Positions 13,419 to 64,000 of a DNA stretch of 64,000 bases are shown one piece after another. The notes below the pieces were generated by a model. It did not search any database and was not told where the DNA came from. It saw only the letters and a list, made by a program, of their open reading frames with translations. The stretch is taken from the IMG/VR virus record IMGVR_UViG_3300003316_000399, positions 27,633 through 91,632 of that record. One strand, 5' to 3'. The translations under genes and the position numbers were made by a program. Source of the stretch: a virus. Lineage: Duplodnaviria > Caudoviricetes. Positions within the stretch are counted from its first letter, which is position 1; each line of letters opens with the position of its first letter.

Positions 13419-13450
13419 TTTTACACTCCGTTGTTAATTTATGAAGTTTT

Positions 13451-15048: not shown

Positions 15049-15061
15049 TTTGATTCCTCCA

Positions 15062-15108: not shown

Positions 15109-15115
15109 AACCTTT

Positions 15116-15433
15116 TTAGGATTCCAATGCAATCGTTTTGTAAAGAAACTCCTGTTGTAGAGACAACATTTCTGCAGTTACATCTTTTCTGTTCGAGTTA
15201 AATTTCATAGATGTTTTGGCTGTGTCACACATCTCTGCAACTAACTCCTCCCTCGTATCAAACTCCACATTCTTGGAGCGGCAAAATCGTGTCTGGTGTG
15301 AAGCATCTGGGTCATCAAACCAACCAAGAACATAGTCAGCAGTATATTGCTTTTTCTCCCCAGCTTTAATGACAATAGCTTGGACACTAAACACTTTCGC
15401 AGTCTTCTTTTCAGAGTTCATATTTTGACCCAT
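15116..15433 (-). CDS. Hypothetical protein
   Basis: Operon context downstream of the SSB-like gene. Confidence 0.6.
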   Translation of the reverse strand: MGQNMNSEKKTAKVFSVQAIVIKAGEKKQYTADYVLGWFDDPDASHQTRFCRSKNVEFDTREELVAEMCDTAKTSMKFNSNRKDVTAEMLSLQQEFLYKTIALES

Positions 15434-15441
15434 TTTTTCTT

Positions 15442-16173
15442 TTATGTCCAGAGTGGACGAACGGGTTCCCAGTTCAAAGTCTTCATTACCTCTGTATAAT
15501 CCTCACCATCGAGTAACGCCTGTTGCGCATCATGCGGCATTGGACGAATAACGCGTGACATGTTATAACGCGGTAACATTTCTAACTCAGAGGGTAGAGG
15601 GTCCATGTCGTAATCAGGACGTGCTTGGTACTTAGTTGATCTTCCAGTACCATATGAACTGATAAGAACATCGAATCTCTGAATTGGGAGAAAATCACTA
15701 TACGAGCTGTCAGGGAACCGCTTCCGCGTCTTTTCATGAAGAAGCGCAAACTGCTCCATAAGCATTGGACCCTGCTTTAAAATATATGGACGATTTAGAA
15801 CACGAGGAACGCCGCGTACACTAAACTGCCCATCCTGGTTTGGTCTATGAACCACTCCATCAATTTCAATAACTGGAGTTCTGTCAAGAACATTTAATGC
15901 CCACTGCTTAGAACCAAATTTGAAATCAGGGTGATCTTCACCAAGAGATCGCATATACTGGTCGATGGGTCCATCCCATCCCTCAACAACAATAGGGCGA
16001 TCTTCACGAACACCGTTTCCAATATTTACTGGAATCCAATATTGTCTAAATTTATACTCTTCATCATCGCGAATACGAATAGTGGTTTGTGTGCCTGCAA
16101 GCTTTAAAAATGGGCTCTCAAGTGGCCGTGCCTCTGCCTTAACAGGCTTCTTTAAACTATCTCCAAACGCCAT
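15442..16173 (-). CDS. Putative single-stranded DNA-binding protein (gp32-like)
   Basis: FLKL..TIRI, WALNVLDR, GTGRSTKY pattern; heads the replication operon. Confidence 0.6.
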   Translation of the reverse strand: MAFGDSLKKPVKAEARPLESPFLKLAGTQTTIRIRDDEEYKFRQYWIPVNIGNGVREDRPIVVEGWDGPIDQYMRSLGEDHPDFKFGSKQWALNVLDRTPVIEIDGVVHRPNQDGQFSVRGVPRVLNRPYILKQGPMLMEQFALLHEKTRKRFPDSSYSDFLPIQRFDVLISSYGTGRSTKYQARPDYDMDPLPSELEMLPRYNMSRVIRPMPHDAQQALLDGEDYTEVMKTLNWEPVRPLWT

Positions 16174-26400: not shown

Positions 26401-28960
26401 TGCTTAAATCACCTGCGAAATCCTTGTTAATATTGGATTGCTTTGCTGTTTTTGATCCTGTTTCATACCCAGCAATATTTCTATCCAACGCGTTGAGAAT
26501 TCTTAATGCTTGTTCTTGCTGCTTCTCATTTAGAAAATCTTTATTGTTACTATACTGTTCCTGTAAAACTTCGTAACCCGCACGTGTAAGATTATTAACT
26601 TTGGTCTGTACACCTTTTGGTAAAAATGGCATTACATTGTTGTTAAGGAAGCTCACACCAGCTTCACCAAAACTAAGCATAGTATCAGCACGTCGAGCAA
26701 ATGCACCTTTATCAAAATCCTTAAATTTATTTGTTCCAAGGATTCGATCCATATTTAACACAGCGCGCCAAATATTTGTCAGTGCATAACCGATGTCAAC
26801 AAAGGTACCAGGATTAAGCTGTCTAATAGATTCATCAAAAATCTCAAGTGCGTTAACAATTGCACCAAGCTGATTTGTAGCACCTACAAATTTTGCAACG
26901 CGTTGTGCTATTTTATTGACTAGACTGTCTCCGGTATCAGATTGCTTTAAAGTTTGCTCCAATCGGCGTTTTGTTTCTTCAACACGATTCGGTGTATAGC
27001 CCTGAGTAGGAGCCTGTCCTGAACGTCTGTAACTACGCGCCGCTTCTGGAGATTCAGCACTTATGTTTGGAGTTTCATCCGATGAAAGAAATTTAGCAAA
27101 CTTTGTGACATTATTGAATAAACCTTTTGCTTTATCAACAAATGTTGAAGATGGATCTTTCACAGGACCAAGCGCTGTTTTAATAGCATTGGCAATTTTT
27201 GATGATAAACCTTCCTCATTAATATATGCTGTATTACTTGAGTTTTCATCGCCGGATTGCTCACCAATAAACGCGACTAATTTATCAAAAAATGCGCCAA
27301 GGTTCTGGTTTTGTGTAAATGATCCTACAGTATGAAGATCTTTAGCAACCTCTACTCCATTTGTTGATCTTTTAGACTCATATACACCACCCATGCCAAT
27401 AGAATCAAAAGCTGTAGGTCTAATATTTTTATTAATCTGATCAAATAGCAATCTAAAACCATCAGAAACGCGTTTTGTAAAAGCATCAATGACTCTCTGA
27501 AATCCAGAATTAATTGTATTACCAAATTGATTTATAGAGGAAAGACTATTGGCAGATATAGTATTAAAAATACTCTTACCCATATCTAATAACTTTGAAA
27601 AACTATTAGCTGGATTTATTGATGCAAACTCATCGCGTACTTTATCAGACAATCGAGTTGAAAGCGGGGCACGCATTGCTGCAGGTGAATTTTCATCATC
27701 TCCAGGATTAATGTTTCTGCCTAAACCAAGATTGATTGCATCTCGAAATCTATCATTGTTATACTCAATACCTAAATTCTGTTTAAAGTTATAGTTCAGT
27801 GTTCTAAAATCTGGTAATGATACGTTTCTGATATCAGAAGCAGCATTCGGATCTTTTGCTAATAGAGATCCAATACTTCTAAGTTGCGCGATACGATCGT
27901 TGGACAACACCTGTCCGGTTTTTTGAGATGCTTTGATGTAATCATCAACAATCTTATTTGCAATACGCCGACGCTCAATCAGCATTGTTTTTACACGTTG
28001 ATAAACTTCACTATCAACAGCAGCTGCTCGATCAATATTTTCCTGCTCAATCTGTATCTGATCAGCGGGACTAACAGCCGCAGCCTTCGGCTTTCGTGTT
28101 CTCTTGGGTTTTGGTATACTCTCCTGAACCTTTGCTTCGGGTGCCTGTTCTTCAATATCGCGGCGTATTTCCTGTGCAACCTGTTGCTCACGGGAGACAT
28201 CTGTACCAGCGGGTGTTTTTTGCTCAGGATTTGCTGGGTTTATACCTGTAATATTTAAATTTCCAGCAGCTTGCAAACGCACGAGCATTTGCTCCAATGG
28301 CTTTAGATGTGTAACAAGATCATCAATACTCTTAAAATTCTTACTGTCTATTTCAATTTTAAATGAATTAACAGCCTGTTTTAAGGTATTGATATCCTTA
28401 GCAAGTTGCTTAAAATCTGTACTGGATGCATTTGATAAAGATTTTGAGAACGATGTAAAATCATTTATAAATTTGTTAAAACCTGTATCATTCTCATTTA
28501 TATTTGGAGCACTAAAATTAGTTAATTTTTGTTTTATTGAATCTAACTCGTTACCCACGTCTTTAAGTTCATTAGCTAGTGTTGACACTTCAACACGCGT
28601 TTTCTGGAATGAGTTAGCAATGCTTTGATTTGTAGATGACAATCTTTCTAAAACACTCGCTTGGCGCTCTAGAGCGTCGGTTAGCGATGTTAAACTACCC
28701 GAATCTAATCCTTTTAATACATCGCGTAATGCGCGCATATCCTGCTGCATCTGTTGAACATTCTCAGGCTTTAATTTTCCAAGACTGATCTGTATACGGT
28801 TGATAGCATCAACAAGTTGGCTCGCGTCTTTCGCCTCGGCAACAAGAGCACTAAAACGCGAGCCAAACTTCTCAAGTCTGTCGTCAGCAGAGCTAATAAC
28901 GCCGAGGAGGTCAAGTAGAACATTTTGTATTTCAGCCACTCGATTATCAAAATCTGACAT
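20468..28960 (-). CDS. Tail tape measure protein (2830 aa) with an inserted HEXXH domain
   Basis: Very long helical protein after the tail chaperones; TP901-like core (LEKLGIAV..DG..RSWYDIL, AFGG); Gly-rich hydrophobic segment. Confidence 0.88.
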   Translation of the reverse strand: MSDFDNRVAEIQNVLLDLLGVISSADDRLEKFGSRFSALVAEAKDASQLVDAINRIQISLGKLKPENVQQMQQDMRALRDVLKGLDSGSLTSLTDALERQASVLERLSSTNQSIANSFQKTRVEVSTLANELKDVGNELDSIKQKLTNFSAPNINENDTGFNKFINDFTSFSKSLSNASSTDFKQLAKDINTLKQAVNSFKIEIDSKNFKSIDDLVTHLKPLEQMLVRLQAAGNLNITGINPANPEQKTPAGTDVSREQQVAQEIRRDIEEQAPEAKVQESIPKPKRTRKPKAAAVSPADQIQIEQENIDRAAAVDSEVYQRVKTMLIERRRIANKIVDDYIKASQKTGQVLSNDRIAQLRSIGSLLAKDPNAASDIRNVSLPDFRTLNYNFKQNLGIEYNNDRFRDAINLGLGRNINPGDDENSPAAMRAPLSTRLSDKVRDEFASINPANSFSKLLDMGKSIFNTISANSLSSINQFGNTINSGFQRVIDAFTKRVSDGFRLLFDQINKNIRPTAFDSIGMGGVYESKRSTNGVEVAKDLHTVGSFTQNQNLGAFFDKLVAFIGEQSGDENSSNTAYINEEGLSSKIANAIKTALGPVKDPSSTFVDKAKGLFNNVTKFAKFLSSDETPNISAESPEAARSYRRSGQAPTQGYTPNRVEETKRRLEQTLKQSDTGDSLVNKIAQRVAKFVGATNQLGAIVNALEIFDESIRQLNPGTFVDIGYALTNIWRAVLNMDRILGTNKFKDFDKGAFARRADTMLSFGEAGVSFLNNNVMPFLPKGVQTKVNNLTRAGYEVLQEQYSNNKDFLNEKQQEQALRILNALDRNIAGYETGSKTAKQSNINKDFAGDLSTGDPLADYQRREALKTMSPEDIKRMKIIETGIMNFSEGTSFQKGLASGYAVLSSSGMVSTMEGMGVAPEIAKQAGGYSGASLPYTDRNTGRKTAFGFTNRDDRTALTYMDDTDIIIHELTHGLTFSAGDKALKNTDLEKSIAKRRAYLTTPGNQQQAMRVASNILDQNQMQDLGGALKDQDYYFKSGEVLSNVSQALISGKAEFINFFRRLYGNELFDIATKTLKEISPDTYSKEGIVLLRERVEELNKSIGIAINASGEELDRAASQVQGYAFYDPSFNSDKTSTQMPGVTSTPVSNEAPSALKSTTKQSWVQRVKTSFTSFKNQFTSNIPEYISSILGSDIGSALSAAYEEMRIPDPNVSTNNSSMKQKAIRASEAAMQAILSNQIKTMISDPENPLSLGNVVAGILPDRIGPSFEYFSKPRSGMFGGLKDRFINMAAYSAGRAVSPNKQLDLYDEVNFKLMQKSGEGLDRESFNTEYVYDFNEGINRVSISAKTTSGAMVQLNGKIDEFNNLVLDTPKENPLSKFLEQVAIEIPRQITDEFVENLIFKLQELVGQIVDMQDELAEIGTLLESSSGTIDISTTKRAGSDFLYNSIDTAVETGQGFTEGVQTNIQNFKVLAPIQDMRERQEISNALSRTQLGSQTVFGISLEESLESIPAIFAQLRDSIDESITDPSARAAAAVSELNNLMSKLVVAQRESGAAGSDLIQVYAQLAASAGDAGLSQDRLLAITAASAVKLNKSPVETSNSIKALMERTYGEGRDDLEKLGIAVRQVNEDGTIGFRSWYDILKDSYTLMNDMPYKSKEITQAFGGRARANEAKKLIESIPEVDRIQQTLQPTSEGGKMTGEEFDVVLKRKSEVFAGALNKLQGSFALFLQEILFGSGLMDDIGNALTRVADSMREIADAAKGNPQVIQTIKQALQAVIIGFLGVFTAGMNAFSGIAKVINMAATTVRSFTSQLTLGLRAILQPATGAGRALAQIFTSMEASGSKSLSVLGSAAKALSVDLMQVAEVGKIATANVQGLGAVNSFLKGVTDKPTAVGVSGFMNTRAGKILGQTGRTLGDLALPIGMDVAMGGFSGENMMNVGAGIAGGFAGAFVGGPLGAQVGYMIGKGVSEYFDVYGTFLGTSGREQEKFASAYAEAKSTGGIENVYEQADALKEILSQSPISGPSTAVSSENLKNYERLIANAGDPSSIQDNFFLANYRVGALGNVENFYNKLEGSPDLKSLYQNSGISDPKEFLNLLTQAKDENTEITAKIKEQEQVQQAIRDLQQSQNSETSKGRDIFGGINETLDSIRTKMSDMRELSQYTYKVPTGLTEFGTFGRQTQRLNTVFSSKFNDISSGRITGQAAEDVMSQYQTARSSLEALPNTLAIADPLARKLGQDTSGMNKMLYQIGSEGQNEFQQQLSQLVEMQNFMEEYSALQEQATAIAKTPEYIDTSSEEHTKATQSYDAVQKQLQARQMLAVEYRAYLAMVKQEPDTLMKSLGLIKSQKDARKTTVIAGTPAQFQAPNIFDVSDYKTEDLSAALDYARQKQSDLTSMFPAWGNEFSKQQFLMSSGDSYKSVAGINQGFVNEYLQQQQQKRQQLKAPETVDLSEYTPEQTQKIIQRAQQLQSQAVNLAPDLAEKYSDERLLIMRKNNDLLMQTGLSQEYLRMAIDENTESNDQLRGHYNLPGNYRAPTVWDYYNAGGKETGSVNYVSPEMGKEGMVTMDFAKQLAEAILQGQQGSTKEAPNLAALGNTIMPGAAPMGYPTPGTPGRVITEPDLPFIDEALENLRPSMPAPPRNIEEEYDLYSYRDVNTSKRIDAKSIAMREQAAQRSGGGGGGGGRGWLEDLSNSSKPVKNSLQDLGQRANQSNNELGMLAKVSATAAVRMSTFAKENLDVKSISSFSTALGTAAAALGKFDLAALLAATPIALQIIVNGQANQGGSAAKAMINGKPGNIVSPGASVGKAQSTGGQGLKAGRSLRDRQV

Positions 28961-28978
28961 GAAATATTTCCTCCTCTT

Positions 28979-29278
28979 TTAATCTTCTATATCTTCTATA
29001 TCGACGGTCGCAGTCGTTCCTGTGGAAGATTTATTACTACTTAGTGATGGGTAAAGTTTATCAACATGCGCGCGCACGAATTGTGGATAATCCCAATATT
29101 CTTCTGGCACTGGTTCAATAAGTTCCAAATACGAATCATATCTTTGTCTCAACATAACCGCGTATGTAATAGTGTGCGGCCAATCCCAGACTGATAACAA
29201 ATCTTCATGCAGCGGCCTTCCTGTAGTTTTAGCAATATTCCACATTATTGAAAACTGCGCCGTCTTTGCTAGTTTTTT
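28979..29278 (-). CDS. Tail assembly chaperone, C-terminal frameshift extension (gpGT-like)
   Basis: Open in the -1 frame from the slippery A AAA AAC (29278-29272) through to the stop at 28979. Confidence 0.8.
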   Translation of the reverse strand, partial: KKLAKTAQFSIMWNIAKTTGRPLHEDLLSVWDWPHTITYAVMLRQRYDSYLELIEPVPEEYWDYPQFVRAHVDKLYPSLSSNKSSTGTTATVDIEDIED

Positions 29279-29946
29279 ATGTCTTCAGTACCCACAGTGA
29301 GTTGCTCATATTCATTTTTTAGGAAATCTCTCAGCGCTGTGGGGAACTGTTTATATTCTTCCAATGTACACAGACGACGGTTATATTTCTCATCCTCATA
29401 CAGACTTGCAGCAACCACGCGATCCTCAAACTCTTTTTGGTAAATCTCTTCACAAACGCGATCTACACGATGAGATCTGTACATATTTTTTACAAAGTCC
29501 TCAGACTGTGTTGTTAATTGTGCCTTGAAATCCTCAGCCCATCTCTTTGCGTATTCTTGCATATTGTCAAGATATTCTTCCTCGCGTGCGTCCTTCGCCG
29601 CTTCATATTCCTCCTGCTCTTCCTGAGATGGAAAATCGCCTAACTTTGGAAGAATAGGACGTGGGTTCTGTGTAATATATTCCTGTATGAACCGGCGCGA
29701 TGATAATAAGATAATCTCTTCGATCAAAGAATCCTTCGTGATATCTTGTATAAAATCAAGATATAGAAGATATTCATCACTTTCTGTATTACGAAGTTTT
29801 GTACGCAGCTTGCGTGACTCTAAAAGTGCTTGCTTACGTGATTCCTCAATATCCTGATCAGTAACAATGCGGATATAAAAAGTAATATCATCATATGTTA
29901 CAGATTTCCGCCATTTTAGTAACTTTTGTAAAAGTTCTCTGGACAT
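29269..29946 (-). CDS. Tail assembly chaperone (gpG-like)
   Basis: Between tail tube and tape measure; start MSRELL with RBS AGGAG; ends ATA AAA AAC TAG. Confidence 0.8.
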   Translation of the reverse strand: MSRELLQKLLKWRKSVTYDDITFYIRIVTDQDIEESRKQALLESRKLRTKLRNTESDEYLLYLDFIQDITKDSLIEEIILLSSRRFIQEYITQNPRPILPKLGDFPSQEEQEEYEAAKDAREEEYLDNMQEYAKRWAEDFKAQLTTQSEDFVKNMYRSHRVDRVCEEIYQKEFEDRVVAASLYEDEKYNRRLCTLEEYKQFPTALRDFLKNEYEQLTVGTEDIKN

Positions 29947-29970
29947 ATTTAACTCCTGATCCTCTTTCAA

Positions 29971-30028
29971 ATAAAAAAAAGTATGGGGATTACGCAGTGC
30001 GGGTATGCAAAACGTAATCCCCATACTT
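29971..30028 (-). terminator. Intrinsic terminator after the major tail gene
   Basis: 16-bp stem AAGTATGGGGATTACG/CGTAATCCCCATACTT ending in U8. Confidence 0.85.
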
Positions 30029-30049
30029 CATCCCTTAGCCGCACTGAAA

Positions 30050-31294
30050 TTAAGCCGACTTTTCACCCTTATAGAAATAAATCTTATTGCTACGCGAAGC
30101 AAAGTTATAAGTTACTCGTGCGTCCTGACCAACCTGTGTATTGTTCTGCTCCTGCGTAATATCCAGTTTTGGAATCCAAATGGTCTCCTCGGGTCCAACA
30201 ACATTTCGGTCAACGCCGCGCCGGAAAACTCGGATTTCTAGACCCCAATTTGTACTGTCACCAAGATCATTCGGTGTCCAGTTATCACCATCTACATCGT
30301 TCGCGGACAACTGCTTCTGAATCTTAAAATCATGCAGCAGAAGTTCTAGAGTACCAGTGATCTCAGGAATTGAATCCATGTAACCAACAACCTCTTCTGA
30401 ACCGAGTTCATTGATACGTGTGTTGGGGAACTGACCCTGTACTGTACAAGTCTGAACACGATACACACGATCCTCAACTCCAGAAGCAGTATCTACCAGC
30501 CAAATTTCCACACCCCAACCCCGCACTCCAACCGGCTGATCAGGAAGTGGAGTTGCACCGTATGCAACATGCGGAAACTCATATGTATAATCCCACTGAT
30601 TACTCAGATCAGCATGATACATAACAGTTACAGGCGTATCGTCAGCCACGGTCTCAGTATCAAAGGTAACACTAGTAGAAGTAGACGATGTGATAGCCTC
30701 ACGTGGCAAATAGCCTAAACCACTTGCAAACGCGGAAAGGACGTATGAACCATTCTTCAGCACGCGCGCGACAGGTGATGTGAAAGTAAACAGGCCAGTC
30801 TCGTCAACCGTACCGCTCGCAACTGCCACATCATACTTTAGAAAATATCTATTGGTTGCATTAAAACTAAACTCTTCAGTGCTATCACCACCAACTGAAT
30901 AGTTTAATGAGAATCGCTCCAGCTTTGCACCAGGAACGAAAAGAGTGCCTACAATCTCGTCACTATCACGCGCGGCCTTGAAAGGCTGCTCAAGACAAAC
31001 ATAATCAATATCCTGAGCTTCAACAGAACTGCCTGACGGAACAGCAGTCCAATCTACGCCAGCTAGGGCAAACTTTGTCCTAACACCAACATCCATAGAA
31101 GAAACTGTTACAGTGACTTCAGGAAGATCAAAGATACGACCAGCAATCTGATCAGAACCAAGCTCCTGCACCGGAGTGGTAGGAAGGTTTGCACCGATCT
31201 CAGCTCGCTGTACACGACCGAGACGAGTCTTACCAAGTCCATTAATGGCGTTGATTGCAGTCTCTTTGAAATTAATTGAGACTCTTGATCCCAT
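30050..31294 (-). CDS. Major tail tube protein with tandem-duplicated tube domain
   Basis: Synteny; two homologous halves (RVQ..P.T...ELGS....G....PE.T) separated by a beta-rich insert. Confidence 0.8.
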   Translation of the reverse strand: MGSRVSINFKETAINAINGLGKTRLGRVQRAEIGANLPTTPVQELGSDQIAGRIFDLPEVTVTVSSMDVGVRTKFALAGVDWTAVPSGSSVEAQDIDYVCLEQPFKAARDSDEIVGTLFVPGAKLERFSLNYSVGGDSTEEFSFNATNRYFLKYDVAVASGTVDETGLFTFTSPVARVLKNGSYVLSAFASGLGYLPREAITSSTSTSVTFDTETVADDTPVTVMYHADLSNQWDYTYEFPHVAYGATPLPDQPVGVRGWGVEIWLVDTASGVEDRVYRVQTCTVQGQFPNTRINELGSEEVVGYMDSIPEITGTLELLLHDFKIQKQLSANDVDGDNWTPNDLGDSTNWGLEIRVFRRGVDRNVVGPEETIWIPKLDITQEQNNTQVGQDARVTYNFASRSNKIYFYKGEKSA

Positions 31295-49464: not shown

Positions 49465-50154
49465 ATGAATCAAATATTTAATATTGATTGTTTATCATAT
49501 ACAAAATCAATGGACAGTGAATCCGTTGATTTAATAGTCACAGATCCGCCGTACCTAGCACGCTATAAAACCAATCATCGTAAGGACAAAAATCACAAAT
49601 TTTGTAATGAAATCCAAAACGATAACAATCCAAAATTACTTACAGATCTAATACCAGAACTCCACCGAGTTTTAAAGAACGACGCGGCATTATATATGTT
49701 CTGTCGTTCTGATGAGGTGGAGTTTTTTAAATCCCAACTACAGAAATACTTTAAAATAAAGAATATTATCATCTGGGTAAAAAATAACTGGACCGCTGGT
49801 GATCTGTCTGCACAATATGGTAAACAATATGAGATGATTATTTATGCAAATAAAGGGCGCCGTAAATTAGAGGGTCGTCGCGAAACAGATGTCTGGTTCT
49901 ATGATCGCGTTGTGGGTAAAAAGCAGATACATCAAAATCAAAAGCCATTGGATTTAATAAAAAGAATTATTACAAATTCTTCAAAGGTTGATGATTTGAT
50001 CTACGATCCATTTATGGGAAGCGGTACAACAGCTATCGCGGCGATTCAGCAGAATAGAAATTACGTTGGTTGTGAAATTGATAATGCATATTATACTATA
50101 TGTCAAGAAAATATTAAACAATTTGGAAAGGAGGTGATAGATAATGCTTGTTAG
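49465..50154 (+). CDS. DNA N6-adenine/N4-cytosine methyltransferase, beta class
   Basis: TDPPY, IIIWVK, HQNQKP, DPFMGSGTT. Confidence 0.92.
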   Translation: MNQIFNIDCLSYTKSMDSESVDLIVTDPPYLARYKTNHRKDKNHKFCNEIQNDNNPKLLTDLIPELHRVLKNDAALYMFCRSDEVEFFKSQLQKYFKIKNIIIWVKNNWTAGDLSAQYGKQYEMIIYANKGRRKLEGRRETDVWFYDRVVGKKQIHQNQKPLDLIKRIITNSSKVDDLIYDPFMGSGTTAIAAIQQNRNYVGCEIDNAYYTICQENIKQFGKEVIDNAC

Positions 50155-52726
50155 AAGGCTTGATGAAGAAGACTTGGCTGTTTTAGAAATCGTGGAAGAT
50201 CCAATTTTCTTCAGTGAGTTTATGAGAAGTACAAACTTTGGTTCTATGAAGAAAGAAGAATGGCCGAAACCCTTTGAACTTCGTTGGTATCAAAAAGATT
50301 TAGAAACAGATCAAACCGAGAAAATTGTTATAACAGGTGGTCGTGCTATTGGTAAATGCAGTCCTATTGATGCGCGTGTATATACCTATCCGTATGGTTA
50401 CCAGAGTATTAGAAATTTAATTCTTCAACAACGATGGCACGGACATTTTATTGTATATGCATTAGATAAAGAAATGAATCTAGTACAACGCCGCGCCCGT
50501 GTTGTTAAAAATGGCCTACGGGATGTGTATAAAGTAATTAGCGCGTCTGGTCATGTGTTTGAGGGAACTGCTAACCACCCATTACAAACGAAGCGCGGCT
50601 ATGTAATGATTAAAGATTTGCAAGATGACGATGAAATTGCGGTGGTAACAAGTCTTCCTCATGATTCTAAACAGGATATATTTAGCTGGGAAGAGCTTCG
50701 ATGGTTTGGTTATACAATTTATCGTGATAAATTATCTCCAGAATTGCCAATTTCTTATCGCGGGCAATCTCAATTTAATGAATTGAAAGCCATTGCTAAA
50801 TATTTCGATGCATCATTTGTAAATAATAATGACGGAACATGTTCAATGCTAAGAAAACGCGGGCCATTGAAACATTATGCTTCTTACTTGATCGAGCATT
50901 GTCAATTAGGCACTGCAAAAGGACGGGGTGCAGCACGATTACCATTGATTTTAAAAGCTGAACGATTGGATAATATTCGTGTTTTTATAGAATCTTTGTT
51001 TGCCGGAACTGGTATTATCTCGAAGGATTCTATTAGTTTAAAACACAGAAATCGAAGTTTTGTATACGATGTTCAAGAATTACTACTTCGGTTTGGTGTT
51101 GAGTTTACAGTAGTGCGGTGTGATGATGGATGGGAAACCAAGAATCTGGATTATAATGCATATTATACTTTCTTCCAAGAGTTTAACATACCGGGTCTTC
51201 AAATTACTGGTTTAAAATCTCCTGTTCTCCCAGATTATACTCGTCCATATCTAAAATACGAGTTAATTCGCTCTATTTCAAAAGAATATGCGCAGCATAC
51301 ATTTGGTATTGCAGTAGCACAAGACCATAATTATATCAGTGATAATTTTTATGTCCATAACACTCTTGTACTAACTGATATTATGATGTATGAAGCTGTC
51401 AATCCTGATTTAGCATTTCCTGACACAAAGAAAAGTGTTCTGGTAACACCAAATTTAAACCAGATGACACCATTGATTCAGACAGAGTTTCTACCACCCA
51501 TGTTATCGAGTCCATTTTTATCACACTTTTTTATAAAATCAAATCAATCTCAGGGTACAATTGAATTTAAGTCCACAGAGTCTAAAAATTATATTATGTT
51601 TACACGCATTGCTGGTACAAATAACGAGTCTAATATGGTAGGTTTGCACATTCCAAATATCAAAGGTGATGAGATGCAGATATTTCCTATGCCTGCATTT
51701 ATCCAACTGCGTCCCACATACAATACGTGGGAAGATAGGAAGAAACAGCGCTTTGCAGGAGTTCCCAATGGTGTGCGAGAGGGCAGTGTATTATATATGC
51801 TCGATCAGCGCGCATCGGATTTTAAGAAATATCGTATTCCTGCACTAGAAAATCCATATTACAGTCAAGAGCAACACGAGGAAGATCTTAAACTCTACGG
51901 CGGAGAAGAATCACAAGAATATCAAAATCTTGTTCTTGGTGAGCATGGTGAAGCCGCATTCTCAGTAATGCCGCGTGATAAGATTCAAACAGAATCAACT
52001 ATTCACTTTATGTCGAAACGCTTTAACCAGACCGACCAGCATGCTGGACGCGATTTTAAAGATGCTCTAACGCTTGTCGATATACCTAAAAAGCAATCTA
52101 GACTACTCATTATGGCCGCCGACTGTGGATTCACTGATCCAACTCTTATACACGTACTGGGTCAAGATGATAATGGAATTTGGAGATGTTTCGCCCGATA
52201 TCGTTTAACACGTATTACATTCCCTGATCAGGCGAGAATTATTGATTGGTTGGACAATCATTATAATTTTAATTATCTGTGTTTTGACTTCGGCGCGGGC
52301 GGAAACGGCGTTGGAATTGCTCAAGATTTGATGAATAGTGGTAGATTTTCCAAAGCTAGAAAATATAATGAACGTGTGTGGGGTGTCAGATTTAGTGATT
52401 ACATCGATATTGGATATGATTCAAAGGGACAACCTTTACAAGCAATGGCAAAATCGTACGCGGGTGAAGAATTGGGACGATTAGTCACTAATGGAAAACT
52501 ACTGTTCTCTGAGATAGATCTCGAAGGTTTAAGTCAATTAGAACGCATTGCTTATAATAAAAGGCCAAATGGTACCAATGATTATTTTGTAATGTCTGAG
52601 ACCGGTAAAGGTAAAACAAGAGATGATCATATATTTGATAGTTATCTTGTATTTACACTCGCGCTTACACAGATATTGCATGTGAAACCGAAGACTAGAT
52701 TATTTAGTGGAGCTACTTGGGTATGA
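50144..52726 (+). CDS. terL: Terminase large subunit (intein-containing)
   Basis: Walker A GGRAIGK|T split by an intein, Walker B GDE, nuclease ADCG.DPT and DDHIFDS; portal downstream. Confidence 0.88.
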   Translation: MLVRRLDEEDLAVLEIVEDPIFFSEFMRSTNFGSMKKEEWPKPFELRWYQKDLETDQTEKIVITGGRAIGKCSPIDARVYTYPYGYQSIRNLILQQRWHGHFIVYALDKEMNLVQRRARVVKNGLRDVYKVISASGHVFEGTANHPLQTKRGYVMIKDLQDDDEIAVVTSLPHDSKQDIFSWEELRWFGYTIYRDKLSPELPISYRGQSQFNELKAIAKYFDASFVNNNDGTCSMLRKRGPLKHYASYLIEHCQLGTAKGRGAARLPLILKAERLDNIRVFIESLFAGTGIISKDSISLKHRNRSFVYDVQELLLRFGVEFTVVRCDDGWETKNLDYNAYYTFFQEFNIPGLQITGLKSPVLPDYTRPYLKYELIRSISKEYAQHTFGIAVAQDHNYISDNFYVHNTLVLTDIMMYEAVNPDLAFPDTKKSVLVTPNLNQMTPLIQTEFLPPMLSSPFLSHFFIKSNQSQGTIEFKSTESKNYIMFTRIAGTNNESNMVGLHIPNIKGDEMQIFPMPAFIQLRPTYNTWEDRKKQRFAGVPNGVREGSVLYMLDQRASDFKKYRIPALENPYYSQEQHEEDLKLYGGEESQEYQNLVLGEHGEAAFSVMPRDKIQTESTIHFMSKRFNQTDQHAGRDFKDALTLVDIPKKQSRLLIMAADCGFTDPTLIHVLGQDDNGIWRCFARYRLTRITFPDQARIIDWLDNHYNFNYLCFDFGAGGNGVGIAQDLMNSGRFSKARKYNERVWGVRFSDYIDIGYDSKGQPLQAMAKSYAGEELGRLVTNGKLLFSEIDLEGLSQLERIAYNKRPNGTNDYFVMSETGKGKTRDDHIFDSYLVFTLALTQILHVKPKTRLFSGATWV
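50357..51361 (+). mobile_element. 335-aa intein with a degenerate LAGLIDADG endonuclease
   Basis: N-terminal Cys (CSPIDARV), block B TANHPL, C-terminal HNYISDNFYVHN followed by Thr. Confidence 0.92.
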
Positions 52727-57624: not shown

Positions 57625-58410
57625 ATGAATATTGATACATCGACATACAATAAAACTATTCGTTTTCCAGCAACATTGGGAGAATTACCCATTGGCTGGG
57701 GAAATACAAATCTGGGTCGTAGACCAGGAAAACCGCGAAGTATTTTGATTCACACTACAAATAATCCACATCCCAATACAACATTTGAACAAGAGGCCGC
57801 ATTCCTTTTCAAGGATCATTTAGTAAGTGCGAATTATATCGTTGGACGCGCGGGACAAATAGCAGTTATTGTACCGGATAACCTTGTTGCGTGGCATAGC
57901 GGTGACTGTGTAGATAATGATTATGAAAATACATGGTCCATAGGCATTGAAATACATTGGTCACCGGCTAATGGGTATATGCCAGATTCCATCGTGCAAA
58001 CTGTAACAGAATTAGTGCGATCTATTCTAGCGCGATATCCTGATATTAAGAAAATTGACACACACCGCGCACAAGCGGTTCCTAAGGGGCGCAAAACCGA
58101 TCCTGATGGCTGGGATGATACACGATTCTACTCCTGGCGTAGTGAAATGCTATCACAAAACAACAATACAGGATATACAGGATATACAAAATATGGAAAA
58201 ATTGAATATTACAAAGTAATTCGTGGTCCAGCGCGGGTGCGTACATCTCCACATTTTGGTGATAACATTGTCCGCACATTACCTGTGGGAGAAATTATTG
58301 GTATTGATTCTTCGACTGTTTATGGTGATTATTGGGAAGGGAGTAATATTTGGTCACATTACGCAACAGATGAAGGCTTTATTCATAGTTTACTCCTAGA
58401 AAAGGTTTAA
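57625..58410 (+). CDS. Endolysin: N-acetylmuramoyl-L-alanine amidase (Amidase_2) with SH3-like domain
   Basis: ILIHTT, SANYIV, AWHSG, SIGIE, H...KTDP; C-terminal RVRTSP..GFIHS. Confidence 0.9.
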   Translation: MNIDTSTYNKTIRFPATLGELPIGWGNTNLGRRPGKPRSILIHTTNNPHPNTTFEQEAAFLFKDHLVSANYIVGRAGQIAVIVPDNLVAWHSGDCVDNDYENTWSIGIEIHWSPANGYMPDSIVQTVTELVRSILARYPDIKKIDTHRAQAVPKGRKTDPDGWDDTRFYSWRSEMLSQNNNTGYTGYTKYGKIEYYKVIRGPARVRTSPHFGDNIVRTLPVGEIIGIDSSTVYGDYWEGSNIWSHYATDEGFIHSLLLEKV

Positions 58411-58437: not shown

Positions 58438-58992
58438 ATGTTTTCTATTACATTTACTGATTTGATATCTACTTTAATGTCAGTATCATCGCTTATTGTT
58501 CCAGGTATCATTCCTACCATTGGCCCATTGATATTCATCGAACAGCAAGTAATACCAACGGATACAAGTAATACGGGGTTATTCCTTTGGATTATTGGGG
58601 GATTGGCGGGAACAATCGGCGGCATGGGATTATTACTACGCACACAAGTCATGCCATTTATTCAGAAGCAGATTGAGATAAATCAGCAAGCGCATATAGA
58701 GGCTGAAAAACAAATGCTCGCGCGCTATACTGAACAACGTGATTATTTTATTCTACAAATAGAAAAGCTGCAGAGTGTTAATCAAGAACAAAGTACAAAA
58801 TTACTTACCGCGTTTTTACAACAGACAGAAGTAAGTTTACTCTTGCGCGATGCTGTAGCGCGGCTTGGTGATAGATTAGAGGATTTAGAACAAAAGGTAG
58901 ACGCATTGTTATTACGTAATGCCCAAATTACACCACACGCTTCACCATACATTGCATCACAGGCTGCAACAATTATGCCTGACAAGAACTAG
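58438..58992 (+). CDS. Holin-like membrane protein with coiled coil
   Basis: Hydrophobic segments (GLFLWIIGGLAGTIGGMGLLL) next to the endolysin. Confidence 0.55.
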   Translation: MFSITFTDLISTLMSVSSLIVPGIIPTIGPLIFIEQQVIPTDTSNTGLFLWIIGGLAGTIGGMGLLLRTQVMPFIQKQIEINQQAHIEAEKQMLARYTEQRDYFILQIEKLQSVNQEQSTKLLTAFLQQTEVSLLLRDAVARLGDRLEDLEQKVDALLLRNAQITPHASPYIASQAATIMPDKN

Positions 58993-59043
58993 ATAAGAAC
59001 TAGATTATAATCAAACTATAATTATCAAATGTATCCCCCTTTG

Positions 59044-59085
59044 TATCCCCCTTCCCTTAAACAAGGAAGGGGGGTATTTTTTTTT
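59044..59085 (+). terminator. Intrinsic terminator closing the lysis unit
   Basis: CCCCCTTCC/GGAAGGGGG stem followed by T9. Confidence 0.85.
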
Positions 59086-59320
59086 CCTACTGTATCACCG
59101 CGTTATTGTTTGTAATTTTCTATCTATATTTCCCCCCATCTATATTTCCCTGTTATACTATAAGTCATATATAGCGTGAGTATATTATGAGTGAGTAATA
59201 TATATATATATTTCTTTTTTTTGTTTTGTTTATTTTTCTAGGATATGAGTACCACAACACCCACTATTTGTATGCGACCTATACCCTTTTTTAACCACCC
59301 CGTCTGAGCAAAATGGGTAC

Positions 59321-59348
59321 TTGTAATCTTGCACATCCGTGGTATTAT
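59321..59348 (+). promoter_or_regulatory. Putative promoter TTGTAA-N16-TATTAT with extended -10 TG
   Basis: Read directly at the start of the GC-rich segment. Confidence 0.55.
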
Positions 59349-59656
59349 ATGGGTGCAGGCAGCCCCGCCTGCGCACACCGGCACCGAACTGGCACCCACG
59401 CCAGTGACGACCAAAGCTACGGCGCCCGCCGAGTCCACTGGACCTGCGCATTAGCGCATACGTGATGAGCACTTTAACAATCGAATAACGAAAGCGGATT
59501 ACTCCTTGCTGCGCGTATCCCCGCGTGCAGTTTTACCGCCTAGCCGGGTATCCTCGCCCGGGCTGGGTTGAGTGCCCGCCGGAGCCTAGCCCTCAAGATC
59601 TCCTGGTGGCTAAATCTGGCCCATTCCGTATACGCTTCTCACATTAAGGAGTAGTT

Positions 59657-61027
59657 ATGTCATCGCTATTCACCCCGCACGTGCCAGGGGCTTTCGCACG
59701 CAACCTTCTCAGGCGCACAGGTGACGACGCTTACGCTGCGGCCTTGCGCGACGATGTTGCGTACGCTGTTACCCAGCTGGAAGAAGCCGTACACAATCAC
59801 GAATTTGAGTCCATATACCCGGTGTGGACTCAGGATGACTACGACGATCCCGCAATGGTAGACGAGCTAAACGCACAGCGTCAAGCGGATCATATTCGTT
59901 TCATTGAAGGATGTCTGGATGTCTTGATCGTCTACACAGGGCATCTCGCACACTACACAGACGAAGCCGCGTATGCCATAGACAGCGAATGGGCACACCA
60001 GCAAGTGTACCAGCCCACCCTGGCCGACACCTTGCTTGCACCGTTTCTTGACATCCCCGCCCCGGCCAGTGACTTAGTCGCGTTCCTGGCCAAGAACGCA
60101 GCAGCCGCCCTTGATCAGTACACACACCCGCTGGCCCGGCTTGAGACCTTGCTCAACTCACCCACGCTGGCCTCGCCCTCCCCGGATTGGACTGAAGTTT
60201 CCTGGACGATGGATCAAGTCGGCTACGCACTGGAGTACCTTCAGCGTCAGTGGGAACAATTGGACCGCACCCCGCACGAGCCGGGCATCTTGTACCGTGT
60301 CCTTATGGATGGCACCCTACCCTTTATGAACACGCAGGCCGGGCTGGCCCGTGCGATCTACGACGTGAACTACTCCTTAGATGTCATTGCCTCACGTTGT
60401 CGGACTGACGCAAAAGGCGTTGACTATAGGCCGGACATTGGCCCGCAAGTCAAGGAGTGGCTAGAAGGGAATCTCTCGGACGACATCAACTGGGCATTCA
60501 CGGCGTTGCGTTCCCATTGGGAACACTACGATGGCTACGCGCAGGCGTTCATCGATGAAATTTCCAAGCACGACACGCAGACCAAAGGCGGTCCACAAGA
60601 CGTATCTGAACCATTAGGAACCTTCCTGGACAACCTAATCGCTCTCTGTGAGCAGCACGACGATCTACACCCGCTGGATAAGACATCACAGACTGATACG
60701 TACCACACCGATCGTACTGAACACGATACTGCCTCGCCCGACGCCCAGCCCAATGACAAGCCCGGCGGTGCGGATGAGATTGAACCACAGTACACGCTCG
60801 ATGACTACCTGCACGACTGCGCAGAGTTTGATGACTACTATGGTCAGTGGGATGACAACACTGTCAACCCCCCGCCCGATACGAACAACGCGCCTGGTGT
60901 TGTCATAAATCCCGATCCAGTGCCGCAGGACGCCATCTCCCGCGCGATTACTCAGAAGCTTGGGCAGGGTCCCTGGGTGCCCTTCACCGGCAGTATCCTC
61001 TTCCGCCCGGATGGCGAGAACAACTAG
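59657..61027 (+). CDS. Hypothetical acidic protein (456 aa)
   Basis: RBS TAAGGAG; long GC3-rich ORF. Confidence 0.75.
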   Translation: MSSLFTPHVPGAFARNLLRRTGDDAYAAALRDDVAYAVTQLEEAVHNHEFESIYPVWTQDDYDDPAMVDELNAQRQADHIRFIEGCLDVLIVYTGHLAHYTDEAAYAIDSEWAHQQVYQPTLADTLLAPFLDIPAPASDLVAFLAKNAAAALDQYTHPLARLETLLNSPTLASPSPDWTEVSWTMDQVGYALEYLQRQWEQLDRTPHEPGILYRVLMDGTLPFMNTQAGLARAIYDVNYSLDVIASRCRTDAKGVDYRPDIGPQVKEWLEGNLSDDINWAFTALRSHWEHYDGYAQAFIDEISKHDTQTKGGPQDVSEPLGTFLDNLIALCEQHDDLHPLDKTSQTDTYHTDRTEHDTASPDAQPNDKPGGADEIEPQYTLDDYLHDCAEFDDYYGQWDDNTVNPPPDTNNAPGVVINPDPVPQDAISRAITQKLGQGPWVPFTGSILFRPDGENN

Positions 61028-61046
61028 TCTATACTCGGTGTGTCGG

Positions 61047-61074
61047 GCACAGCGTTCAGCACAGCGTTCAGCAC
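61047..61074. repeat. 12-bp tandem repeat (GCACAGCGTTCA x2.3)
   Basis: Read directly. Confidence 0.8.
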
Positions 61075-61212
61075 ACCGGGCAACCCGAAGATTAGCCAGA
61101 CCACCGGCCAGCACAAGGAAGCCAGCGCATACCACACACCCCGGCACACATCACTACCCGCATCGCTACCTGCATACGGGGTCCGATACAAGTCCATATA
61201 AGGAGGATTCCA

Positions 61213-61524
61213 ATGTTCAAGTTTGACAAACTCAACAAAACCGCGATGGTTGACGCAGCGAAGTTTGCCATCGTTGTCACATCAGGCGTGGTAGGGATTG
61301 CTGTCAGCGTCAAAGGCGCCCGTATCGTTGCCACCGCCGCATCAGGTGCGCTCATCGCCGCAGGTATGGCAGCGGCACCCGCCAGCATCGTCGGCTTCGC
61401 TCTGGGTATGGGTTTTTACACCGCCATTTCTAAGCCCATCGTGACCGCCGCAATGTTTACCACAGCGGAGCTTGTCGATAAGATCAGCCCGCCGACACAC
61501 CGGGCGCCCTTCGCACGTCCATAG
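61213..61524 (+). CDS. Small hydrophobic (membrane) protein
   Basis: RBS AAGGAGG; Ala/Gly/Val-rich hydrophobic helices. Confidence 0.7.
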   Translation: MFKFDKLNKTAMVDAAKFAIVVTSGVVGIAVSVKGARIVATAASGALIAAGMAAAPASIVGFALGMGFYTAISKPIVTAAMFTTAELVDKISPPTHRAPFARP

Positions 61525-61542
61525 CTCACGTCCATAGCTCAC
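61514..61542. repeat. 13-bp tandem repeat (CACGTCCATAGCT x2) spanning the stop codon
   Basis: Read directly. Confidence 0.8.
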
Positions 61543-61665
61543 ACGGCGTTCATAGTGCCCGCTGCAAGCCTGTACCTACTTGTACACTAAGTACACTGCA
61601 CGTACGAATTGCAGCCCATTGCCGATACACTTGTATCGCGCGCAACCCACACAAGGAGTACTACA

Positions 61666-62853
61666 ATGGCACCCCGTACCGCCGCTACCACTGCCCAGCC
61701 GGGCAACGACGAGAATGTGCCCGCCCCCGGCACGGTTGATGCGCCCCCCGCTGATCAGCCCCCCGGCGGTCAGCAACCCAATGAGCAGCAACCAGGCGCG
61801 CCCGCCAATGGGCAGATTGATGGGCAGCCCGCCGGACAGCCCGCAGGGGCCGACACACAGCCGCCCGCTGTCCAGCCCACACCGAATCCTCTGGAGCAGT
61901 CCACACCGACGAATGGCGAGCCACCGCGTCTGGAGATTCGCAAGATCGCCCAGTCCGACAATGGGCAGGCCGTCGAGCGTGAGTATCTCGTCGCCCACCT
62001 GCCGATGCCCGTGTCGGTTCCGACACTCTCCCCCATCGAGGAGATGCAGGTGATGATCAAGGAGGGGCGATGGCCCGCGTCCCCTGTTGAGCAAGCTCAG
62101 TTGCTTGCCGAGATGGCCCAGCGCACCCTTACGACTGGCGCCGTGGAGTCCTACAGCGCGGATCATCGCCGCTACCGCGCTCTGGCGGTGTGGCGCGAGC
62201 TTGACTCGATGTCACGCTCGCTCCGGCGGGTTGTGGATGAGATGATCGAGGAGTTCAACGCGGCGCAGCCCGCCGAGCAACGTGTGGCTATCGATGGCGA
62301 CGGGCAGATGGTGCTGTCGCAAAACGCCATTCAATCGGTTCAGCAGCAGCCGCACAAGCCGCAGGCGCCGCGCAACAGCAATGGTAACGGTGCAGCTTCC
62401 AGCAACGGCGGCGCCACGCGGGAGGATACGCGCTACGCCACGTACGATCAGACCATCGCGTGGGCCAAGCACACTCTTGGCATCGATAGGCTCTTCGTCA
62501 CGCGGCGTTACACCCCGCGCGAGAACCCGGACCAGGCTGTTACGGTGTATCTGGAGTGGGCCGGACCTTCCCGGTGGGTTCCAGCCGCGTGGGATTCCAG
62601 TCGTGGCCGCGTTGTTGCCAAGCCCTGGAACGCGGGAGATCCAGCTTGGACCACACTCAACGCCGCCGATCAGGCGCTCGTGGAAGGCAGTCCGGTCAGT
62701 GTGTATGCCGCCTATCTTGTACAGGTCGAGAACGACGGCAAGAACATCCCGCAGCACCCGTGGAATGAGGCCAAGCGGGGCGGAGTCCACAACATCCTGG
62801 TCCAGCTTCGCATCATTGACGAGCTTGCGCGTGCGTTCCACAGCGAAAAGTAG
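61666..62853 (+). CDS. Hypothetical protein with a Pro/Gln-rich disordered N-terminus
   Basis: RBS AAGGAG, start MAPRTA. Confidence 0.75.
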   Translation: MAPRTAATTAQPGNDENVPAPGTVDAPPADQPPGGQQPNEQQPGAPANGQIDGQPAGQPAGADTQPPAVQPTPNPLEQSTPTNGEPPRLEIRKIAQSDNGQAVEREYLVAHLPMPVSVPTLSPIEEMQVMIKEGRWPASPVEQAQLLAEMAQRTLTTGAVESYSADHRRYRALAVWRELDSMSRSLRRVVDEMIEEFNAAQPAEQRVAIDGDGQMVLSQNAIQSVQQQPHKPQAPRNSNGNGAASSNGGATREDTRYATYDQTIAWAKHTLGIDRLFVTRRYTPRENPDQAVTVYLEWAGPSRWVPAAWDSSRGRVVAKPWNAGDPAWTTLNAADQALVEGSPVSVYAAYLVQVENDGKNIPQHPWNEAKRGGVHNILVQLRIIDELARAFHSEK

Positions 62854-62868
62854 CACACACACATTCAC

Positions 62869-62897
62869 AGAATCGGGGGCCGAAAGGCCCCCATTCT
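62869..62897 (+). terminator. GC-rich GAAA-tetraloop hairpin (terminator or processing site)
   Basis: GGGGGCC-GAAA-GGCCCCC; only a weak U-tract. Confidence 0.55.
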
Positions 62898-62960
62898 CTG
62901 GGCCAGAAAACTGGCACTGAAACTGGTCCACAAGATTCAAAAATCCCAGAGGGGGATTCA

Positions 62961-63341
62961 ATGTATCGTAGTTACGACCCGATTCACATACTGCCCGAGA
63001 CATACGCAGATGTGCTAGTACTGGAGTGCGAGGGGCCATTTGGCGATGACGGGCAGCTACGCGCGCCAGATGACCATGGTCATCTCCTTCTAACCGTCGA
63101 GGATATATACAATCCGCATCTCCCGAAAGAGGAGTATAAGCTTTTGTACTACGGGCATTCAGCAATGTATCTACCCTGGCACGAGAGCAAAATTGGCCCG
63201 TATTTCTGTTCTGTCGGATACAGCAACCCGCTGGACGCGTTTCGCCGGGGGCGCAACCGCTGGCGCATCTACTGTCGAGATTTCAATCCAGTTGATGGGC
63301 GCGTGCTCATCAACGCTATCCGTTATCATCGGATTCATTAA
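62961..63341 (+). CDS. Hypothetical protein
   Basis: RBS GAGGGG, operon context. Confidence 0.6.
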   Translation: MYRSYDPIHILPETYADVLVLECEGPFGDDGQLRAPDDHGHLLLTVEDIYNPHLPKEEYKLLYYGHSAMYLPWHESKIGPYFCSVGYSNPLDAFRRGRNRWRIYCRDFNPVDGRVLINAIRYHRIH

Positions 63342-63355
63342 TGAGGAGGTATCCA

Positions 63356-64000
63356 ATGACACGCACCACTATTTCAAACTTGCAGGAGATCATCGCCGGT
63401 TTGCAGAATGATATTGATGCCCTGAATAGGGGCAATAATTCGCTCGCGCAGCGCTGCGATGAGGCGGAGAAGGAACTGGAGAATATCAAGATCATCAGTC
63501 AGCAGACAATCGACGCCCTCCAGACCGAGATCGCCTATTTGCGGCAGGAAGCGCACGACGCGGATCTCAAGCGCGGGTTCCACACTGCGCGCAGCAACGA
63601 CAACACCCTCAACGGCTCGGAGGGCTTGGAGAGCGAGGGTGTTGATCCCAATGACCGTGTTCCTGTCTGGACGCGGTCATTCATTAAGCAATGTCTGGAA
63701 AACAAGAGCACGATGACTATCAGCCTGACTGTCACTCAGCGTCAGGACAATGGTGCTGAGAATAAGATTCGTATCGCAGCGCGTACAGCGCAAGGCGCTC
63801 TCGACAGCGTGCGGCGTACCGTTAGTGCGAACAACGTGATCGGCATCCAGGCAAGTGTCAGCCGTGGCACGGGCGCACGTGGCAACATCGAGCGCCTGGT
63901 GAAGGGCACCCAGTTCTCGTGCCGCGACAACGTTCCGTACCGCGCAATGCCGGATCACGTGGAGCGCTATTTCAGTGATCTGAAGAGGGCTGGTCTGTAG
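63356..64000 (+). CDS. Hypothetical protein with an N-terminal coiled coil
   Basis: RBS GAGGAGG, start MTRTTI. Confidence 0.7.
   Translation: MTRTTISNLQEIIAGLQNDIDALNRGNNSLAQRCDEAEKELENIKIISQQTIDALQTEIAYLRQEAHDADLKRGFHTARSNDNTLNGSEGLESEGVDPNDRVPVWTRSFIKQCLENKSTMTISLTVTQRQDNGAENKIRIAARTAQGALDSVRRTVSANNVIGIQASVSRGTGARGNIERLVKGTQFSCRDNVPYRAMPDHVERYFSDLKRAGL

Follow-up and report, generated by a model that had tools for sequence, protein, structure and literature searches.

An abrupt GC step in an AT-rich uncultivated phage genome sets off a block of orphan genes that may belong to a GC-raised accessory arm

The stretch of DNA analysed here, referred to as the window, comprises 64,000 nucleotides of one strand, namely bases 27,633-91,632 of the IMG/VR record IMGVR_UViG_3300003316_000399, a single contig of 91,632 bp from an uncultivated tailed phage (Duplodnaviria; Caudoviricetes); the end of the window is also the end of the contig. 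Its final ~4.7 kb form a block of five predicted genes that stands apart in composition from all that precedes it. In 1-kb windows the G+C content (GC) ranges from 0.32 to 0.46 over positions 1-59,000 and from 0.55 to 0.62 over positions 60,001-64,000, and in 200-nt windows it passes from 0.295 (59,100-59,299) to 0.565 (59,300-59,499), with the switch itself, from 38-40% to 55-64% GC, spanning ~100 bp at ~59,300. The block is the only part of the entire record with a GC above 0.49. In the called genes, GC at the first, second and third codon positions (GC1, GC2 and GC3) is respectively 0.505, 0.389 and 0.317 in the AT-rich part of the record and 0.645, 0.448 and 0.681 in the block, and the block proteins are enriched in Ala and Pro and depleted in Lys, Ile and Phe. 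The step at ~59,300 is real and abrupt, and it lies well outside the scatter of the genome itself. A preliminary description of this DNA, made without database searches, had reported an abrupt switch from AT-rich to GC-rich DNA after the lysis terminator and a preference for C- or G-ending codons beyond it; both are borne out by the GC and GC3 profiles, which show a step of ~20 points that is unique within the record.

The features on either side of the step (Table 1) delineate in outline a separate transcription unit, in which a leader and five orphan genes, all on one strand, follow the predicted terminator of the lysis operon and a sigma-70-like promoter. At least the larger open reading frames (ORFs) can be taken as real genes, given that an ORF of more than 400 codons is estimated to arise by chance at 58% GC with a probability of < 1e-6 per ORF, and that GC3 exceeds the overall GC in all five block ORFs. 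The 456-aa protein, with a net charge of -51 and an isoelectric point (pI) of 4.27, is the most acidic in the genome, and the product of the 103-aa ORF is probably a membrane protein. AAGGAG or AAGGAGG ribosome sites lie upstream of three of the five ORFs, in keeping with the strong sites mentioned in the preliminary description, but such sites are also frequent in the AT-rich part and are hence not distinctive of the block. No Rfam family was matched within 58,900-64,000. A motif of the form CTTGTA...TAnnnT, considered as a recurring promoter of the block, was discarded because it is not enriched (6 found versus 3.2 expected).

Table 1. Features at the junction and within the GC-rich block (window coordinates)
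Feature	Position	Strand	Remarks
Tail fibre gene, then amidase endolysin	endolysin 57,625-58,410		End of the AT-rich part
Last lysis-cassette gene, 184 aa (membrane/coiled-coil protein)	58,438-58,992	+	Hydrophobic N-terminus and coiled coil; TAG stop within a perfect 11-nt tandem duplication
Intrinsic-terminator-like hairpin and T-run	59,051-59,084	+	Closes the lysis operon
AT-rich spacer	59,086-59,300		~30% GC; short direct repeats; composition changes at right edge
Sigma-70-like promoter, TTGTAA, 16-nt spacer, TG-n-TATTAT (extended -10)	59,321-59,348	+	Exactly at the GC switch; consensus match only
GC-rich non-coding leader, ~300 nt	59,349-59,656	+	Moderately structured, folding z = -2.4; no Rfam match
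ORF, 456 aa	59,657-61,027	+	Orphan; AAGGAG ribosome site
Perfect 12-nt tandem duplication	61,047-61,070		Directly past the stop of the 456-aa ORF
ORF, 103 aa	61,213-61,524	+	AAGGAGG ribosome site; small, hydrophobic, Gly/Ala-rich; TAG stop inside a perfect 13-nt tandem duplication (61,514-61,539)
ORF, 414 aa, more likely 395 aa	61,609-62,853	+	Likelier start at 61,666 behind an AAGGAG site; Pro/Gln/Gly-rich N-terminus
GC hairpin GGGGGCC-GAAA-GGCCCCC	62,874-62,895	+	Past the 414-aa ORF; read by eye
ORF, 126 aa	62,961-63,341	+	Orphan
ORF, 219 aa	63,341-64,000	+	TAG stop is the final base of the record

The remainder of the record encodes PolA, a DnaB helicase, RNR, glycosyltransferases, an RNA ligase, a polynucleotide kinase (PNK), an amidoligase set and a giant tape-measure-like protein. 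Its genes run leftward from ~43,000, and rightward from the same point through RNR, TerL, portal, fibre and lysis genes into the block. As judged from the predicted products, the combination of PolA, DnaB, RNR, RNA ligase, PNK and a tRNA operon is that of a lytic phage. The nearest cultured DNA polymerases are those of Pseudanabaena phages, at only 28% identity.

Neither Pfam nor PHROG profiles recognize a family in any of the five block ORFs, in agreement with the preliminary description, which had found no family among them. No homologue of the 456-aa ORF was detected among 5.8 billion proteins or 1.84 billion representatives, and the sole match of the 414-aa ORF among the same 5.8 billion proteins was the protein itself. 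Likewise, tblastn of the 456-aa ORF against 50,697 phage records gave no match, viral contigs held no homologue of the 456-, 395- and 219-aa ORFs, and species-representative genomes held none of the 456- and 395-aa ORFs. A protein atlas searched by a language-model route offered no usable match for the block ORFs, and megablast of the block and of its AT-rich flank found nothing in the phage collection. AlphaFold2 predictions made without an alignment gave a pLDDT of 54 for the 219-aa ORF, where only a long N-terminal helix (residues 8-84) is confident, and a low-confidence, all-helical model with a pLDDT of 36 for the 456-aa ORF.

The wider relationships of the phage were traced through TerL, for which 93 homologues of at most 51% identity were found. 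Their alignment led to 80 IMG/VR loci with a common order of capsid block, RNR, TerL, portal and endolysin, and five whole records from among the relatives (G001-G005) were read. We refer to these uncultivated phages of 78-107 kb as the intein-TerL phage group, a grouping made in the present analysis. Three of the five carry an arm of 14-16 kb with a GC 8-13 points over baseline. In G003, a 78,041-bp genome with a 73-bp terminal repeat, the plus-strand arm has 55-62% GC against a baseline of 42-47%, and a GC3 of 0.66-0.79 against ~0.47; it starts ~5 kb past the lysin, crosses the contig ends (69.4-78.0 plus 0-6.4 kb) and meets the opposite arm. In G002 (14.9-31.2 kb) and G004 (53-67 kb) the arms are likewise 14-16 kb long, exceed the baseline by 8-10 GC points, and are found past the lysin on its own strand. 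The rise is mild in G005 (76-77.8 plus 0-5 kb) and absent from G001, which has 35% GC. On the circular maps of the relatives the GC-raised segment occupies the far end of the rightward (TerL-portal-lysis) arm, at its convergence with the leftward arm. Of 25 further loci, which reach only 4-8 kb past the lysin, 22 likewise have a higher GC3 downstream of that gene.

Orthologues shared by the arms of G002 and G003 are 40-49% identical, and a match was found for only 6 of the 29 arm ORFs as against 41 of 62 elsewhere in the genome. The arm of the relatives is thus inherited and yet the most variable part of the genome, with its GC kept raised over a deep divergence. The block of the present phage occupies the corresponding place, being downstream of TerL, portal and lysin, on the same strand and toward the convergence of the two arms. 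It also resembles the arms of the relatives in style, in that GC3 is raised, the stop codons are rich in TAG and poor in TGA, and all five ORFs are orphans. The arm contents known in the relatives are a Ro60-like vWA protein and a GP88-like protein. When the five block ORFs were compared with the 80 related loci, these two proteins included, none of the loci was found to encode a relative (no match with E < 0.01); homologues in related phages, a check proposed in the preliminary description, were thus sought and none was found. A candidate pairing of the 456-aa ORF with a 483-aa protein of G002 (E ~0.1) was rejected, because the orthologue of that protein in G003 (47% identical) belongs to the DUF2828/DUF7788 vWA proteins, to which the 456-aa ORF gave no match.

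Stop-codon choice provides a second feature of style. In the present phage the counts of TAG, TAA and TGA are 4/1/0 in the arm and 31/63/14 in the rest of the genome (Fisher p for TAG 0.03). The corresponding counts are 14/6/2 and 9/23/22 in G003 (p = 2e-4), 14/6/5 and 9/23/18 in G002 (p = 1e-3), and 9/3/0 and 22/38/22 in G005 (p = 2e-3), where the limits of the arm were set after viewing its GC profile; in G004 the difference is not significant (10/8/5 and 14/29/19). Pooled over the five genomes, and as counted with a simple ORF caller, the stops are 51/24/12 in the arms and 85/176/95 elsewhere. The same tendency is seen in the further loci, where TAG accounts for 32% of the stops downstream of the lysin and 16% upstream of it (p = 1e-3). 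Base composition does not explain this bias: it would give TAG and TGA the same frequency, and dinucleotide biases would tip the balance toward TGA. The preference for TAG links the predicted genes of the block to those of the relatives' arms in style, in addition to position. No suppressor tRNA was found, and the long genes are all open under the standard code with no sign of recoding.

A compositional break at the end of a metagenomic contig could also arise by chimeric assembly, if part of a different phage or of a plasmid from the same community had been joined to the phage contig at a low-complexity, AT-rich spacer. The AT- and T-rich nature of the spacer at the join, the location of the block at the contig end, the lack of homologues in the relatives and the absence of any repeat of at least 16 nt common to the block and the rest of the record are all in keeping with such an event. 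It is rendered improbable by signatures that an unrelated fragment would not be expected to share. We defined as purged the 17 six-base palindromes with an observed/expected ratio < 0.25 in the AT-rich part, 14 of which have zero copies across its 86.9 kb. Most of the 17 are GC-rich and so should be abundant in the block; it contains 2 where 20-26 are expected under Markov models of order 1 to 3, and none of 1000 Markov simulations of the block yielded 2 or fewer, the minimum being 9. For comparison, 17 GC-rich palindromes that the AT-rich part tolerates occur 29 times in the block versus 36-41 expected. The avoidance is specific to this phage, as three relatives show none, in their GC-raised arms, for the palindromes purged only in the present genome (72 versus 71, 66 versus 72 and 64 versus 56 expected). 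The arms of G003 and G002 instead share the purges of their own genomes (6 versus 14-22 and 0 versus 10-13 expected, respectively), and that of G004 gives no clear result (7 versus ~10).

The Karlin dinucleotide distance points in the same direction. It is 67 between the block and the AT-rich part, within the range of 21-80 seen when 4.75-kb chunks of the AT-rich part are compared with the whole of that part, and its values between the block and the relatives (89-152) are all higher. Of all 4- and 5-mers, CATG shows the strongest depletion in the block, with one copy (at 63,075) versus 18 expected, and is also below expectation in the AT-rich part (228 versus 321, a ratio of 0.71); the purged sites other than CATG are purged alike in both parts. 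The stronger depletion of CATG in the block may reflect tighter selection on the arm or a different history. Taken together, the shared palindrome purge, the dinucleotide distance and the CATG depletion exclude a join to the DNA of an unrelated organism, and they indicate that the block has evolved under the restriction pressure acting on the rest of the genome, with the same dinucleotide signature. A chimera is further disfavoured by the unbroken order of terminator, promoter and genes on one strand, and by the occurrence in relatives of an analogous GC-raised, TAG-rich arm at exactly the same position and on the same strand. The view of the preliminary description that the block is neither a random chimera nor an obvious host boundary is upheld by these shared signatures and by the matching location in the relatives. 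The block was also considered as a piece of HIP1-rich cyanobacterial chromosome, and this was rejected since HIP1 (GCGATCGC) is absent from both the block and the AT-rich part.

The observations on composition, position and style are best accommodated, in our estimation, if the 4.7-kb block is genuine phage DNA and constitutes the promoter-proximal part of the poorly conserved, GC-raised accessory arm of this phage family. We regard this explanation, inclusive of a cause in early genes read by host machinery, as probable, if only modestly so. The most likely cause would be that the arm genes are read by the unmodified machinery of a GC-richer host, namely its RNA polymerase, tRNA pool and release-factor pool, while the AT-rich bulk would be served by the tRNAs of the phage. 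The arm may accordingly comprise early or host-interaction genes, such as those for takeover or anti-defence functions. First-injected phage DNA has been described as the restriction-sensitive part (PMC10644984, PMC12455610), and phage tRNAs as serving late genes (PMC12482277). The very acidic product of the first gene and the additional purge of CATG would suit an anti-defence function, if the regions that T5-like and T7-like phages inject first are taken as a model. An early and host-matched arm is plausible, and the suggestion of the preliminary description that this DNA enters first finds no support.

Instead of a long-standing part of the genome, the block could be moron-like cargo, recently imported from a GC-rich phage, plasmid or host to the end of the late operon, devoid of any temporal role and not yet drifted in its GC. 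Such an import would account for the orphan status of the five ORFs and their lack of relatives in related phages, for the coincidence of the step with the terminator-promoter boundary, and for a shift in amino-acid composition that accompanies that in GC3; it would also suit the position, as the arm is the least conserved part of the related genomes. However, the block already displays the phage-specific purge of 17 palindromes, which requires time or a donor from the same host, and a TAG bias common to five genomes is hard to square with independent imports. Moreover, arm orthologues only 40-49% identical are still GC-raised, which argues for maintenance by a lasting cause rather than recent arrival. 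We therefore consider a recent import unlikely.

The record is classed as a provirus in IMG/VR, with a CheckV completeness of 53%, and retains 91,632 of 93,806 bp, the other 2,174 bp having been trimmed as presumed host; a block protein is catalogued from the 93,806-bp contig. Both ends of the record coincide exactly with stop codons. Accordingly, the block could be read as host chromosome flanking an integrated prophage, a view that finds support in the label, in the trimming at gene boundaries and in the expectation that phage and host would have restriction-site avoidance and signature in common. Yet no tyrosine or serine recombinase was found in the record with PF00589, PF00239 and PF07508, for which positive controls worked, the window holds no tRNA, and no att feature was encountered. 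The absence of an integrase and of a tRNA in this region, as asserted in the preliminary description, is thus borne out, and that of host genes stands, because the record has been trimmed, for the retained part only. In addition, the gene set is of a lytic type with a tRNA operon, the relatives exist as free genomes, of which two have terminal repeats, and the block ORFs that were searched have no homologues in protein collections or species-representative genomes. The TAG-dominated stops and the position of the block match the arms of the relatives, and a GC gap of 20 points would be unusual between a temperate phage and its host. A host flank thus appears highly improbable. Exact-pattern scans for the contig end returned no match in viral and metagenome collections. 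CheckV rates the terminal-repeat relative G001 as 68% complete, and automatic calls of this kind look unreliable for the phage family.

The tRNA complement bears upon the explanation in terms of a phage-borne, host-matched arm. ARAGORN identifies genes for Arg-UCU, Lys-UUU, Gly-UCC, Ile-UAU and Leu-UAA tRNAs at genome positions 8,995-16,091, upstream of the window, and these standard tRNAs all read A-ending codons (AGA, AAA, GGA, AUA and UUA). There is also an odd Ala-type tRNA gene with the anticodon CGC in a non-standard position. Codons that the phage tRNAs decode account for 106 per 1000 in the genes of the AT-rich part and 17 per 1000 in the block, with AGA falling from 12.6 per 1000 to 0. 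This split is consistent with a bulk that uses phage tRNAs in a GC-richer host and a block that would be readable by the host pool alone. The match to a high-GC host put forward in the preliminary description is thus compatible with a codon usage that does not depend on phage tRNAs, but the low use of tRNA-matched codons is an automatic consequence of GC-richness and hence does not constitute independent evidence.

A further elaboration, which we put forward as a doubtful but possible scenario, is that of a genome of two compositions. A host-matched, variable arm would act before the phage tRNAs exist and, as the DNA first exposed or first needed, would be subject to the strictest purge of restriction sites, and the AT-rich bulk would be served by the phage tRNAs. 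On the same tentative scenario the organization would represent a T5-like "advance party" arrived at independently, of which the present phage, with its 20-point GC step and GC3 difference of 0.36, would be an extreme case.

Several points weigh against placing the block in an early, host-matched arm. The five ORFs lack detectable homology to the arm genes of the relatives, so that the link consists of position and style only, and the TAG bias that contributes to the latter was found post hoc. Clear arms occur in relatives from a distant subclade, whose TerL is 37-40% identical, and the nearest relatives (~50%) are not among the genomes compared; a metagenome scan with the closest TerLs recovered two short fragments only, and neither the endolysin nor TerL, each used alone in a locus search, gave a match. 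The palindrome purge and dinucleotide signature would also be expected in the host or in another element of the same host, and GC-richness in itself makes tRNA-matched codons scarce. The position of the arm is past the late genes and not at a demonstrated genome end, and no long terminal repeat of the T5 or SPO1 type was seen. Finally, the continuity of phage and block across 59,100-59,400 is a property of the assembled sequence alone, and, given the provirus label and the 2,174 bp removed, a host-type gene may sit just past 64,000.

One of the nearest parallels is the first-step-transfer (pre-early) region of T5 and BF23; like the block, it stands apart from the remainder of its genome and consists mostly of genes of unassigned function. 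Restriction of T5-like phages requires that the sites fall within the first-step-transfer region (PMC10644984). In the present phage the block is purged of sites no less than the AT-rich part, and for CATG much more strongly. However, the T5 region is contained in a terminal direct repeat of ~10 kb at a defined physical end, with an injection-stop signal, whereas here no such repeat or end is shown, and the arm is situated downstream of the late genes. The block also lacks homology to pre-early genes, since no homologue of A1, A2 or dmp was found among the five ORFs in the PHROG and Pfam searches. We know of no comparable GC step in T5.

In T4, codon usage is reportedly split by expression time, with phage tRNAs serving the late genes, an observation said to go back to Cowe and Sharp in 1991. 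Phage tRNAs have also been described as serving late genes in the Shigella phage Sf14 (PMC12482277). As in T4 and Sf14, codons matched by phage tRNAs are here common in the structural and replication genes of the bulk and rare in the block, but the present split, with a GC3 of 0.32 versus 0.68, shifted amino acids and a single contiguous arm, far exceeds the reported cases. Lytic cyanophages of marine Synechococcus are AT-rich (~38-41% GC) relative to their GC-rich hosts (55-60%), and resemble the present phage in being AT-rich and carrying tRNAs for A/U-ending codons; to our knowledge, they have not been reported to keep a host-like, GC-rich arm. Certain gut phages show a split in stop-codon recoding between early and late genes (bioRxiv 10.1101/2021.08.26.457843). 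Here too stop usage differs between genome compartments of probably different expression time, but only the choice of stop is affected, the arm preferring TAG and seldom using TGA, and there is no recoding. A compositional or codon partition within a phage genome is hence already known, and the present one is unusual in its size, its recurrence across a family and the accompanying stop-codon bias. A survey of the literature on bimodal GC in phages uncovered no direct precedent.

Large GC steps within contigs are usually dismissed as chimeras or host flanks, and the present record was itself labelled a provirus by the pipeline. The evidence points instead to a real and heritable compositional partition that recurs in an uncultivated phage family and comes with a distinct stop-codon preference. 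Trimming of host boundaries on the basis of GC can thus mislabel such phages. If the arm is an early, host-matched gene set, it would offer a route from sequence alone to early, takeover and anti-defence genes in uncultivated phages, would allow the GC and codon usage of the host to be read from the phage alone, and would be a clean test case for two questions, namely why the composition of lytic phages departs from that of their hosts and what purpose phage tRNAs serve.

The contig ends lie within the GC-raised arm in three of the six genomes of the family, namely G003, G005 and the present phage (at 64,000), and in G003 the 73-bp terminal repeat is located at an intergenic spot within the arm. 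These ends may represent assembly breaks in a strain-variable region or real genome termini; in the present phage the contig was probably broken inside the arm owing to variation of the arm between strains. In the relatives, the first large arm gene encodes the Ro60-like protein (DUF2828 and DUF7788/vWA; phrog_850 "RNA-binding protein"), as at locus L092 of G003 (9,394-10,851) and in G002 (28,867-30,318); the present phage instead has RNA ligase and PNK genes at the opposite contig end. In G001, the genes adjoining the RNA ligase offered no hint of what the trimmed segment contains.

The TerL of the present phage, an 860-aa protein encoded at 50,144-52,726, carries an intein; its homologues are annotated with PF14890, some of them with a LAGLIDADG domain, and shorter homologues of ~500-550 aa cover 56-63% of its length. 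A further peculiarity of the genome is the presence of perfect tandem duplications of 11-13 nt at or just past the 3' ends of genes, on both sides of the GC switch (792-813; 58,984-59,005; 59,030-59,053; 61,047-61,070; 61,514-61,539; and 21,865-21,886 in genome coordinates), two of which contain a TAG stop. Perfect tandems of at least 9 nt number 13 in the genome as against ~0.5 expected.

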